NCBI GenBank assembly: GCA_023150235.1
Contig: JAKLLH010000005.1
Location: 72,830-136,829 of the forward strand
Reading direction: 5' to 3'
Length of the DNA stretch: 64,000 nt
Source: Azonexus sp.
GTDB taxonomy: Bacteria; Pseudomonadota; Gammaproteobacteria; Burkholderiales; Rhodocyclaceae
Shown here: piece after piece, positions 434-58,098 of the stretch
Layout: each line of letters opens with the position of its first letter
Position numbering within the stretch: the stretch's first letter is position 1
Made by a program: the position numbers and the translations under genes
The notes under the pieces: generated by a model
Told to the model about the DNA's origin: nothing
The model's input: only the letters and a program-made list of their open reading frames with translations
The model's database searches: none

Positions 434-567
434 CGTAAGACTAACTCCGGTTTGAAACCCCGGCCTGAAGGCCGGGGGTTTCAGGCGACCGTTTTGGAAG
501 GGGATGCAAACCCCTTCCAAAACATGTTTGACCGACAGACATGAATGCCTGTCGCTAATTTCTTGCT
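434..567 (+). mobile_element. Non-autonomous IS200/IS605-like palindromic element (PATE/MITE), copy 1, 134 bp with internal deletion
   Basis: Near-identical to 20770, 48719 and 57938; follows TTCAT (429-433); starts CGTAAGACTAAC, ends TTTCTTGCT; first hairpin deleted between two ACCCCG repeats. Confidence 0.8.
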
Positions 568-20142: not shown

Positions 20143-20769
20143 TCAGTCCTTGCGTTGCCAGACTTGCCAGCGTTCGCGGCCGGCAAAGACCGGGATCGAG
20201 TCGGCGACCGGGTGGTCTTCCAGGCAGGTGAAATGGGATGCCAGAAGTTCGTCGAGCTGTTCCGGCAGGATGCCGAAGGGTGGTCCCTTGGGCTGCTCGC
20301 AGACGAAGAAATAACCGGCTAGCCGGGCGCCGGCCGGCAGCAATTCGGCAAGGCGTTGGCCCCAGTCGGCCCACAGCTTGCGCGGCAGGGCACAGAGGAA
20401 GGCGCGCTCGTAAATCAGGTCGAGCGGGGTTTCCGGCTGCCATTGGAAAAAATCGGCGCAGATGAGGTCGACCGTGGAAACCGGTCCGAGCACCGGCGCC
20501 AGCACGCTACGTGCCCGCTCGACCGCGAGCGGCGAGAAGTCGAGGGCGGTCGTCCGCCAGCCGCGTTCGGCCAGCAACACCGCTTCCCAGCCACTGCCGC
20601 AGCCCGGGATCAGGGTACGCAAGGGCGCCGCTTCGGTGCCGATAAAAGCGGCGAATTCGTCGGGAACCTTGCCGGCGTCCCACGGGGTGGTGCCGGCGCC
20701 GAAGCGCTTGCACCAGAAGTCGGGGTGTTCCGGGCGTTGGTCCGGGGTCTTGCTGCTGCCTTCATTCAT
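20143..20769 (-). CDS. Thiopurine S-methyltransferase family SAM methyltransferase
   Basis: TPWDAG, LIPGCGSG, ADFF, IYERAFLCAL, GPPFG. Confidence 0.9.
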   Translation of the reverse strand: MNEGSSKTPDQRPEHPDFWCKRFGAGTTPWDAGKVPDEFAAFIGTEAAPLRTLIPGCGSGWEAVLLAERGWRTTALDFSPLAVERARSVLAPVLGPVSTVDLICADFFQWQPETPLDLIYERAFLCALPRKLWADWGQRLAELLPAGARLAGYFFVCEQPKGPPFGILPEQLDELLASHFTCLEDHPVADSIPVFAGRERWQVWQRKD

Positions 20770-20930
20770 CGTAAGACTAACTCCGGTTTGAAACCCCGCC
20801 CTTCAGGGCGGTGGGAGCCGACCCCGGCCTGAAGGCCGGGGATTCAGGCGACCGTTTTGGGAGGGGATGCAAACCTCTTCCAAAACATGTTTGACCGACA
20901 GGCATGAATGCCTGTCGCTAATTTCTTGCT
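20770..20930 (+). mobile_element. IS200/IS605-like palindromic element, copy 2 (161 bp)
   Basis: After TTCAT 20765-20769, the methyltransferase start codon; removing it restores GGAGAGAGCGC-ATG. Confidence 0.85.
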
Positions 20931-21050
20931 GCGCTCTCTCCATCGCAAAAGTGGATTCCGGTAAGCGGCAAAGCGCTGGATGCATCAAATGTACTCACTG
21001 GGGTGCATGCTAGAATCGCCGCTCCCCAATGCCTATGCCCACCTCGCATC

Positions 21051-48718: not shown

Positions 48719-48879
48719 CGTAAGACTAACTCCGGTTTGAAACCCCGCCCTTCAGGGCGGAGGGAGCCGACCCCGGCCTGAAGGCCGGGGTTTCAGGCGA
48801 CCGTTTCGGGAGGGGATGCAAACCCCTTCCAAAACATGTTTGACCGACAGGCATGAATGCCTGTCGCTAATTTCTTGCT
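48719..48879 (+). mobile_element. IS200/IS605-like palindromic element, copy 3 (161 bp)
   Basis: After TTCAT 48714-48718; removing it restores a ccmF/ccmG ATGA overlap; it supplies the current ccmF stop. Confidence 0.85.
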
Positions 48880-50864
48880 GCTTGTTGCACTCCAGCGGTG
48901 GCGGCAGCGGCACGCCGGGATTTAACGCGATAGCGGCGGTCGAGCATCGCCAGCAGGCCGCCCAGCGACATCAGCAGGCAGCCACCCCAGATCCAGTCGA
49001 CAAAGGGTTTGTAGTAGACGCGCACCGCCCATTCGCCTTCCGGCTTGTCGCGGTCGATCGGCTCGCCAAGCGAGACATAGACGTCGCGCAGGAGGCCGGC
49101 ATCGATTGCCGCCTCGGTCATCGGCATCGCCGACGAATGGTAGTTGCGCTTTTCCGGATTCATTTTGCGGAGAAAACGGTTGTCGACCGTGAGATCGAAG
49201 TTGCCCTGCATCGCCACGTAGTTCGGTCCCTCGACCTGACGCACGCCGTTGAAGCGGAAGCTGTAGCCGGCGACGGAAACCTGATCGCCGACCGCCATCT
49301 TGATGTCCTTCTCCTGCTCGAAGCTCATCACCATGGTCACGCCGACGACAAAAACGGCAACGCCAATGTGTGCCAGATGCATGCCGATGAAGCCGCGCGG
49401 CTGTGCCAATACAGCCGTCAGCAGGCTGCGTCCACCACGGGTATGGTGCACCCGTTCGGCAAAATTCTGCAGTGCGGTGACCACGACCCAGGCGGCAAAG
49501 AACAGGCCGAGCGCGGTCATCGCCTTCCATTGGCCATAGACCAGCGGCAGGGCGACCGCGACGATGGCACCGGCACCCAGCGCCCAGCGGGTGAGGCGCA
49601 GCAATTCGGGCAGCGAGGCTTCCTTCCAGCGGGCGAAGGGACCGATCCCGACCAGGAACAGGATCGGTGTCATCACCGGCACGAAGACCGCGTTGAAGTA
49701 GGGTGGGCCGACCGAGATCTTGCCGACGCCGAGCGCGTCGATCAGCAGCGGGTAAAGTGTGCCGAGCAGCACGGTGGCGCAAGCGACGACCAGCAGCACG
49801 TTGTTGGCCAACAGCATCGATTCGCGCGAGATCAGTCCGAAGCGGCCGCCCAGGCCAACCTTGGGCGCGCGCCAGGCGAAGAGCGTCAGTGACAGGCCGA
49901 TCACCGCGACCAGGAAGATCAGGATGAAGACGCCGCGGCGCGGGTCGGTGGCGAAGGCGTGCACCGAGGTCAGCACGCCGGAACGAACCAGGAAGGTGCC
50001 GAGCAGGGACAGCGAGAACGCCGAGATCGCCAGCAATACCGTCCAGTTCTTGAAGCTGCCGCGCTTTTCGGTCACCGCCAGCGAATGCATCAGCGCGGTA
50101 CCGATCAGCCAGGGCATGAATGAGGCGTTTTCGACCGGATCCCAGAACCACCAGCCGCCCCAGCCGAGTTCGTAATAAGCCCACCACGAGCCCATTGCGA
50201 TTCCCAGGGTCAGGAAGACCCAGGCGGCCGTGGTCCAGGGCCGTGACCAGCGCGCCCAGGCGGCATCAAGCTGGCCGGAAAGCAGCGCGGCGACGGCAAA
50301 GGCATAGGCCACCGAGAAACCGACATAGCCCATGTAGAGCAGCGGCGGGTGGATCACCAGACCGGGATCCTGCAACAGCGGATTCAGGTCGCGACCTTCG
50401 GTGGCGCCGGGCAGCAGGCGCTCGAAGGGATTGGACGTAAACAGGATGAAGAGCAGGAAGCCGAAGGCGACCAGGCCGAGCGTGCCGAGTACGCGGGCGA
50501 CCATCGTGTCGGGCAATTGGCGCGAGAACTGCGCGACACCGAAAGCCCACCAGGTCAGCATCAGGATCCACAGCAACAGCGAGCCCTCGTGGCCGCCCCA
50601 GACGCCGGCGACGCGGTATTCGATCGGCAGCAGCGAATTCGAGTGCTGCGCGACATAGACCACCGAGAAATCGTTGACCACGAAAGCCTGGGTCAGGCAA
50701 GCGAACGAGAAAGTGACCAGCAGGGCCAGGGCGTTGGCGCCGGGCCGCGCCAGCGCGATCCAGGCCTGCTGGTTGCGATGCGCGCCGAGCAGGCTCAGGC
50801 TGCCGAAAACGACGGCAACCAGCGCCGCGAGGATGAGGGCGAAATGGCCAAGTTCAGGAATCAT
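48867..50864 (-). CDS. ccmF: Heme lyase CcmF
   Basis: WGGHEGSLLLW, HPPLLY, WGGWWFWDPVENAS, SVHAFA. Confidence 0.97.
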   Translation of the reverse strand: MIPELGHFALILAALVAVVFGSLSLLGAHRNQQAWIALARPGANALALLVTFSFACLTQAFVVNDFSVVYVAQHSNSLLPIEYRVAGVWGGHEGSLLLWILMLTWWAFGVAQFSRQLPDTMVARVLGTLGLVAFGFLLFILFTSNPFERLLPGATEGRDLNPLLQDPGLVIHPPLLYMGYVGFSVAYAFAVAALLSGQLDAAWARWSRPWTTAAWVFLTLGIAMGSWWAYYELGWGGWWFWDPVENASFMPWLIGTALMHSLAVTEKRGSFKNWTVLLAISAFSLSLLGTFLVRSGVLTSVHAFATDPRRGVFILIFLVAVIGLSLTLFAWRAPKVGLGGRFGLISRESMLLANNVLLVVACATVLLGTLYPLLIDALGVGKISVGPPYFNAVFVPVMTPILFLVGIGPFARWKEASLPELLRLTRWALGAGAIVAVALPLVYGQWKAMTALGLFFAAWVVVTALQNFAERVHHTRGGRSLLTAVLAQPRGFIGMHLAHIGVAVFVVGVTMVMSFEQEKDIKMAVGDQVSVAGYSFRFNGVRQVEGPNYVAMQGNFDLTVDNRFLRKMNPEKRNYHSSAMPMTEAAIDAGLLRDVYVSLGEPIDRDKPEGEWAVRVYYKPFVDWIWGGCLLMSLGGLLAMLDRRYRVKSRRAAAATAGVQQAARN

Positions 50865-57937: not shown

Positions 57938-58098
57938 CGTAAGACTAACTCCGGTTTGAAACCCCGCCCTTCAGGGCGGTGGGAGCCGACCCCGGCCTGA
58001 AGGCCGGGGTTTCAGGCGACCGTTTCGGGAGGGGATGCAAACCCCTTCCAAAACATGTTTGACCGACAGGCATGAATGCCTGTCGCTAATTTCTTGCT
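57938..58098 (+). mobile_element. IS200/IS605-like palindromic element, copy 4 (161 bp)
   Basis: After TTCAT 57933-57937; removing it restores a TAATG stop/start overlap. Confidence 0.85.

Follow-up and report, generated by a model that had tools for sequence, protein, structure and literature searches.

In IS608, an element of the IS200/IS605 kind, the left hairpin is preceded at 19 nt by the left cut, the right hairpin is followed at 10 nt by the right motif, and each hairpin foot has a 4-nt guide on its 5' side (PMC3201880). The pentanucleotide TTCAT is the experimentally defined target-adjacent motif (TAM) of ISGst5, an IscB element, and palindrome-associated transposable elements (PATEs) of that family exist (bioRxiv 10.1101/2023.03.14.532601). 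We analysed a 64,000-nt stretch of an Azonexus genome (contig JAKLLH010000005.1, positions 72,830 to 136,829; hereafter the window, or G000:C5:72830-136829, where G000 is the host genome and C a contig, while L numbers denote loci sampled elsewhere), which holds four copies of a short element built of hairpins, each directly 3' of TTCAT. A first-pass annotation of this DNA had stated that ATGA-type TAMs are known for IscB-carrying elements, and the identity of TTCAT with the ISGst5 motif bears this out. [quoted passage not shown] New here is the family itself, an orphan of its transposase, while the TAM type was already known.

Insertion, copies and relatives of the element

The ccmF/ccmG junction was compared among relatives. 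In 15 of the 15 congeners examined this junction has the form CAACAAGC|ATGAAYCG, i.e., an empty site with an ATGA stop/start overlap, and in the host genome 161 nt are placed exactly between the GC and the ATG of the same junction, with nothing duplicated and the boundary fixed within one base. Because the congeners show an empty site here, the element is inserted DNA. The junction also confirms the lack of a target duplication claimed in the first-pass annotation, and none of the 15 congeners carries the element ancestrally at this position.

A search of the whole host genome (3.42 Mb in 50 contigs, 62.7% G+C, 99.96% complete) with both ends of the element yielded 46 copies in which the left end is present. 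Besides these there were a single copy truncated at its 5' side and a right-end palindrome standing alone. The four window copies, at 434-567, 20770-20930 (the focal copy), 48719-48879, and 57938-58098, had already been reported, and both the sequence and a search with the 22-nt right-end hairpin (4 matches on the window + strand versus 0 in 100 shuffles) agree with them. They all lie on the + strand, and the single orientation first noted is thus correct for the window; it does not extend to the genome as a whole, where both orientations occur. Nor did the rate of 1 copy per 16 kb hold genome-wide, the density being about 1 per 74 kb and the window being locally rich. The copies are 94 to 100% identical to the focal copy and usually 161 nt long; a few have small duplications, and there are length variants of 133/134 nt without hairpin 1 and of 106 nt without hairpins 1 and 2.

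In an alignment of 44 copies the similarity broke off sharply, at single-base resolution, the left limit being CGTAAGAC and the right limit TTCTTGCT, and no terminal inverted repeats were present. The left flank was TTCAT in 39 of 42 copies (logo T41 T42 C39 A42 T42), the exceptions being TTTAT (1), CTCAT (1), and TTGAT (2), the last of which is the target of ISDra2. Beyond TTCAT no flanking base was conserved, save for a mild preference for T at -6 and -7. Of 47 first bases 3' of the element (window position 20931 for the focal copy), 21 were G, 17 C, 9 T, and none A, and the right flank was otherwise free of constraint at any position. The 46 copies, the flank logo, and the empty site together uphold the proposal that the element is mobile, non-autonomous, and inserted 3' of TTCAT, and the element is recently active.

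Two further structures were seen among the copies. A 49-nt perfect palindrome, AGCAAGAAATCAGCGACAGGCAT-GA-ATGCCTGTCGCTGATTTCTTGCT, located outside the window at G000:C25:115361-115410, consists of the right end of the element and its own reverse complement without a left end, and may be a product of aberrant transposition or hairpin repair. Another multicopy terminus, TTCTACTTTGTCAGATTCCCCCCACCCC (at least 7 copies, e.g., at G000:C25:70517-70551 and C43:115-130), which is probably the end of an insertion sequence (IS), cut away the left end of one copy at C43:130.

The 40 relatives searched include 24 congeners, and of the latter G012 alone holds a related element. This element, about 70% identical, agrees in its termini and in the TTCAT flank, while compensatory changes have altered the sequence of the right hairpin. 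More than 130 family copies were found by the left-end pattern in metagenome-assembled genomes (MAGs) labelled Accumulibacter, Zoogloeaceae, Azoarcus, Rhodocyclales, and Betaproteobacteria MS502-56, all of them 50 to 175 nt long and none with an open reading frame (ORF). The hairpins covary across the family: paired stem changes distinguish subfamilies (GGCAT/ATGCC, GCCCT/AGGGC, GACCT/AGGTC), and at alignment column pair 156/174 there are 38 sequences with A-U and 17 with G-C. When metagenomes were sampled by the right end, which left the left flank unforced, TTCAT was found 14 times and TTGAT 3 times; the right-end pattern in metagenomes mostly hit unrelated DNA, the family accounting for 19 of 120 loci. 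A 94%-identical copy follows TTCAT on conjugative plasmid 2 of Polaromonas sp. JS666 (L298, NC_007950.1:221-382, Comamonadaceae), where the motif belongs to the annotated ATGAA start of an IclR regulator. The first 17 nt of this copy are different (CGAAAATCTGCTTTTGG), which suggests horizontal spread and a replaceable left linker. A phage collection gave no match to the element. At many MAG loci, e.g., L013, L021, L022, and L035, the contigs of k119 assemblies stop some 113 nt inside the element, so that contig ends in termite-gut Rhodocyclales MAGs are often due to this repeat.

These data bear on the idea that the repeat is not mobile DNA at all but a structured 5' leader or a regulatory RNA that the host has encoded since its ancestors and that is common to unrelated genes. 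About 40% of the copies do occupy a 5' untranslated region (UTR), and the sense RNA folds with z = -3.2. The idea is refuted by the empty site, since the orthologous position lacks the element in 15 of 15 congeners, and the presence of the element in a single congener, the near-identity of the 46 copies, over half of which are not upstream of any gene, and the lack of an Rfam match also speak against it; a scan of the element at a permissive threshold found no omega-RNA/HEARO and gave hits at chance level, with no family attaining its threshold and a best E of 0.23 for unrelated families. We regard a leader RNA as next to impossible.

Class assignment and candidate mobilising enzymes

The focal copy (20770..20930, +), whose boundaries are sharp in the alignment with the 45 other copies, follows the host TTCAT at 20765..20769 (+). 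It begins with the linker CGTAAGACTAACTCCGGTTTGAAA (20770..20793, +), within which lie CTCC (20781-20784, +), read as GGAG on the gene strand, and GAAA (20790-20793, +), a putative left DNA guide. Hairpin 1, CCCCGCCC-TTCA-GGGCGG(T)GGG (20794..20815, +), is an imperfect palindrome and is the one missing from the 133/134-nt variants. It forms an inverted doublet with hairpin 2, CCCCGGCC-TGAA-GGCCGGGG (20822..20841, +), the apex of which, GGCCTGAAGGCC, also occurs in the right-end hairpin of several subfamilies. Hairpin 3 (20854..20886, +) has a 13-bp stem, kept across the family, and the loop ATGCAAA. The right subterminal hairpin, CGACAGGCAT-GA-ATGCCTGTCG (20896..20917, +), a putative right imperfect palindrome (IP-R), shows compensatory changes in the family (A-T to G-C and C-G to G-C), and the right terminus TTGCT (20926..20930, +), a putative transposon-encoded motif (TEM), ends 13 nt past the foot of this hairpin, a boundary that the empty site fixes to 1 nt. 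The string of hairpins is as the first-pass annotation described it, with a z of -5.5 for the single-strand DNA fold, and in the host genome all four hairpins are confined to the element.

We assign the element to the IS200/IS605/PATE kind because it has no inverted repeats, makes no duplication, has a one-sided 5-nt target, and carries subterminal hairpins on the same strand, four traits that typify IS200/IS605 single-strand transposition and the PATEs descended from it. The imperfect palindromes at its two ends lie at IS608-like distances from the cut sites, the left cut being 24 nt before the hairpin foot and the right motif 9 nt after it. Under the pairing pattern derived from two IS608 pairs, AAAG/TTAC and GAAT/TCAA (PMC3201880), the left guide GAAA would specify TCxT, and TCAT was observed. 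The earlier application of this rule, made for the left end, agrees with this, and the geometry is also similar; at the right end TTGCT is a misfit. Since the left and right motifs are nearly invariant, no covariation between guide and motif can be read. In the mechanism that we propose, the enzyme would recognise the subterminal hairpins on one strand and make a first cut 3' of a host TTCAT (rarely TTGAT), chosen via pairing with the GAAA 5' of the left hairpin. A second cut would be made 3' of the element's own TTGCT, and the excised strand would be pasted 3' of another TTCAT without duplication.

Several observations weigh against this assignment. Neither TGAC nor GACC, which stand 5' of the right hairpin, yields TGCT under the IS608 rule, and TTGCT has no A at position 4, where known TAM/TEM pentamers usually have one. 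The bias toward the G-rich strand is weak in this draft assembly (29 of 46 copies overall, 28 of 42 where |skew| > 0.01). The host genome has no canonical IS200/IS605 tnpA, and neither a TnpB Zn-ribbon nor, in a search run without a positive control, an IscB RRXRR domain was found in it or in the element-bearing MAGs. Of more than 150 family copies elsewhere, none carries or neighbours a tnpA within the 8 to 15 kb examined, and the canonical IS605 tnpA-tnpB units present in some element-bearing genomes have unrelated ends. A search for an autonomous copy, with left and right ends paired at 0.3 to 8 kb, found none, and tblastn with IS605 TnpA, IS200 TnpA, RAYT-like, and TnpB queries gave no match at any of the family loci. 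The first-pass annotation had itself cautioned that a matching transposase was lacking and that the right end was atypical, and both points stand: no transposase with the element's ends was found, and TTGCT is off the guide rule. The tnpA/iscB/tnpB element with matching ends that it had envisaged was found neither in the genome nor in relatives.

The canonical tnpA/tnpB loci of G050, G012, G057, and G048 were considered as the source and rejected, as their ends are unrelated to the element. Locus L160 (G050:C76:226-812) of Betaproteobacteria MS502-56 is one single-strand element inserted into another: the copy there breaks off after CTGTCGCTAA, and next to it lies the remnant of an IS200-type tnpA that has a hairpin of its own. 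A self-BLAST of the host genome for other IS families revealed only IS1595-like, IS3/IS481-like, and Tn3 fragments.

The absence of a duplication and of terminal inverted repeats, and the fact that no cognate Y1 enzyme was identified, would also fit mobilisation by another site-specific family that makes no duplication, namely IS110/IS1111 (bridge RNA), IS91/ISCR (Y2 rolling circle), or IS607 (serine recombinase). IS110, however, needs a long (>10 nt) two-sided target, whereas the target information here is one-sided and 5 nt long, and the two junctions do not have a core dinucleotide in common. For IS91/ISCR, the target is TTCAT and not GTTC/CTTG, and the IS91 domain Y2_Tnp was absent from the host genome and from 7 of the 8 other element-bearing genomes searched. 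Overall, no search having been made for the enzymes of IS110 and IS607, we consider it very unlikely that any of these families moves the element.

The only Y1 genes in the host genome are two that resemble repetitive extragenic palindrome (REP)-associated tyrosine transposases (RAYTs). They encode proteins of about 240 amino acids (G000:C25:69000-69860 and C35:61480-62220; 71% DNA identity) that score 62 and 59 bits on NCBIfam REP_Tyr_transpos, the cut-off of which is 80. We infer the mobilising enzyme rather than name it because these two genes, both under the cut-off, are the only Y1 genes present and the known IS605 ends are unrelated. The two proteins, in a domesticated form, could replace a classical IS200/IS605 TnpA and service the element in the manner of a REPIN (a REP doublet), and hairpins 1 and 2 indeed form a REPIN-like inverted doublet, while both element-holding congeners possess RAYT-like genes. 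On the other hand, the scores fall short of the family cut-off, and the element was not found in the flanks of either gene, one of which has inverted GGGACAGACCACGATTT flanks of its own. RAYT-like genes occur in 14 of 31 congeners, 12 of which are without the element, and several element-rich MAGs, themselves incomplete, show no Y1 gene. Insertion beside a fixed pentanucleotide is not known for REPINs. A REPIN-like element serviced by the two RAYT-like proteins is therefore unlikely. As to GGGACAGACCACGATTT, it has 4 to 6 occurrences in the genome, and those that bracket the C25 gene may be REP-like partners of it.

Start codons and expression of the abutted genes

Each TTCAT next to a window copy is, as first proposed, the reverse complement of a real minus-strand ATGAA start, and we asked whether this association needs more than the target motif. 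Genes of the host genome were called by a simple, crude codon log-odds model with greedy selection, which gave 2,347 calls and under-calls, doubtful ORFs being checked by Pfam; the model was trained on this genome and is unsuitable for lower-GC MAGs. Real ATGAA starts are abutted by 18, perhaps 19, of 44 intact copies (41%), and the remaining copies are intergenic. None of the 44 is intragenic, though about 70% of the 6,185 genomic ATGAA sites lie within genes. ATGAA is the commonest start context (328 of 2,347 calls, 14%), and after scaling there are about 435 start sites versus 565 to 816 intergenic ones, so that starts make up 35 to 44% of the non-genic targets; the probability of 18 or more of 44 is 0.24 to 0.69. 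Because the observed 41% matches this expected share, the association with start codons needs nothing beyond TTCAT and the loss of intragenic insertions, and it is a predictable by-product of the target motif. Insertions inside genes would be lost, and some 40% of the survivors would then fall exactly between a gene's own ribosome-binding site (RBS) and its ATG. The claim that starts are targeted as a chosen safe harbour is thus not borne out.

Active recognition of translation starts, by more than TTCAT (e.g., the Shine-Dalgarno (SD)-ATG context or features of transcription-translation), would make starts a dedicated safe harbour. Its appeal is that real ATGAA starts are abutted by all four window copies, by the Polaromonas plasmid copy, and by about 40% of the genome copies, two of the copies being at coupled junctions. 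Nevertheless, 25 to 26 of the 44 copies lie at intergenic TTCAT without a gene start, the share of copies at starts equals that of starts among non-genic TTCAT sites, and the flank contains no conserved base past TTCAT save the mild T at -6/-7. Moreover, three intergenic copies (G000:C18:17395-17484, C36:30757-30846, and C32:47337-47426) adjoin another palindromic repeat that happens to end in TTCAT; this repeat has the core CACGGTCGACCGTG and 187 exact copies in the genome, and is present in the window, too. We therefore find active start recognition highly improbable.

The four genes in question were identified by Pfam and NCBIfam. Copy 1 (434..567, +), a 134-nt variant without hairpin 1, abuts the ATGAA start of a minus-strand LysR-family regulator (Pfam). 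The focal copy abuts a TPMT methyltransferase gene (20143-20769, -; Pfam PF05724, E 6e-37), for which the length of the N-terminus fits a native start; the TPMT-hemC spacer is not alignable among congeners. Copy 3 (48719..48879, +) lies exactly between ccmF and ccmG (CcmF and DsbE/CcmG by NCBIfam), and CcmF runs four codons into it to end at an element-encoded TAG (ORF 48867-50864, minus strand; window 48867-48879). Copy 4 (57938..58098, +) abuts the ATGAA start of a minus-strand BON-domain lipoprotein gene (Pfam), and its terminal A (58098) restores the TAA of the ORF upstream of that gene, as read in silico at the junction.

On the coding strand, a spacer of 11 nt separates the GGAG of the element from the ATG, exactly as the first-pass annotation had it. 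GGAG spacers in the host genome peak at 5 to 9 nt (159 genes at 6 nt), and an 11-nt spacer is found in 25 genes over a background of about 3, so this spacing is usable but not optimal. That the element would bring its own SD is plausible. The suboptimal spacing counts against such a role, and so do the absence of GGAG from the Polaromonas plasmid copy and its loss from 9 of 17 family copies in an unbiased sample, where GAAG or AGAG stands in its place. Since GGAG varies in the family and is missing from the plasmid copy, the idea of a selected SD is weakened. At the same time, start-abutting insertions are no rarer than ordinary intergenic ones, the two translationally coupled junctions in the window included, which argues that insertions between RBS and ATG are tolerated. 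The purine-rich left end, with GGAG at -15 to -12, may stand in for the displaced RBS, and at persisting start-abutting copies transcription would read through the hairpins. No sigma-70-like promoter was found in the element, and its sole terminator-like site is on the opposite strand; expression of ccmG presumably needs read-through of the hairpins.

A further step, which we put forward tentatively as possible rather than probable, is that the left end has evolved into a portable translation-initiation cassette, making ATGAA starts, 35 to 44% of the non-lethal targets, harmless sites, with domesticated RAYT-like enzymes, and not a classical TnpA, as the possible mover. If so, the main ecological niche of the element would be the base immediately 5' of start codons, and with each hop a gene would lose its native 5' UTR and RBS to a structured leader common to all copies, so that neighbours in an operon, ccmF-ccmG for example, would become uncoupled.

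The element offers a natural example of a DNA-level target rule, with TTCAT putatively read by a 4-nt guide, that has a systematic effect on gene expression. For dozens of genes the native RBS and 5' UTR would be swapped for one structured leader, and translationally coupled pairs have been moved 161 nt apart. That start-abutting insertions are as common as intergenic ones is indirect evidence that the end of the element can drive translation initiation. The family is widespread in Rhodocyclales of wastewater and termite-gut lineages and has reached a conjugative plasmid, yet no transposase was found for it, and it therefore presents a tractable case for tracing the Y1 enzyme, perhaps of the RAYT-like sort, behind the movement of orphan PATEs. 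In annotation work, recognition of the element corrects start-codon calls and explains breaks in short-read assemblies.

Comparison with described elements

The closest counterparts are the PATEs related to ISGst1 and ISGst5 of Geobacillus stearothermophilus (Meers et al. 2023, bioRxiv 10.1101/2023.03.14.532601). Like the present element, they are gene-less, 100 to 200 nt long, and inserted 3' of a pentanucleotide without duplication; they have same-strand subterminal hairpins and no inverted repeats, and they exist in many near-identical copies, presumably mobilised in trans. The element differs from them in having four hairpins instead of two and TTGCT as the right terminus, and in its case neither a TnpA-bearing element with matching ends nor a recognisable omega-RNA was found, nor was TnpB/IscB found in the genome. 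ISGst5 (TTCAT) and ISDra2 (TTGAT) likewise have a pentanucleotide at the left end, and the element uses the former mainly and the latter as a minor motif. They are, however, autonomous or nuclease-carrying, reside in Firmicutes and Deinococcus, and have no sequence similarity to the element, the host of which is a betaproteobacterium.

With IS608 of Helicobacter pylori, the structural paradigm, the element shares the approximate cut positions (roughly 20 nt 5' of the left hairpin, 10 nt 3' of the right one) and, putatively, a 4-nt guide 5' of the foot, whereas the pairing of right guide and TEM is not reproducible, and the motif is 5 nt long and not 4 nt as in IS608. REP/REPIN sequences with their RAYTs resemble the element in the GC-rich extragenic hairpins, the inverted doublet, and the RAYT-like Y1 genes in the genome. 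In contrast to them, the element has a fixed flanking pentanucleotide and defined asymmetric ends, does not cluster at RAYT genes, and, in this genome, keeps its hairpins strictly within its own limits. Finally, the Correia elements of Neisseria and other MITEs are also small repeats located in 5' UTRs or inside operons, where the next gene is likely to be affected in its transcription, RNA processing, or translation. Unlike the present element, Correia elements possess inverted repeats, make a TA duplication, and are not joined to a start codon with single-base precision.

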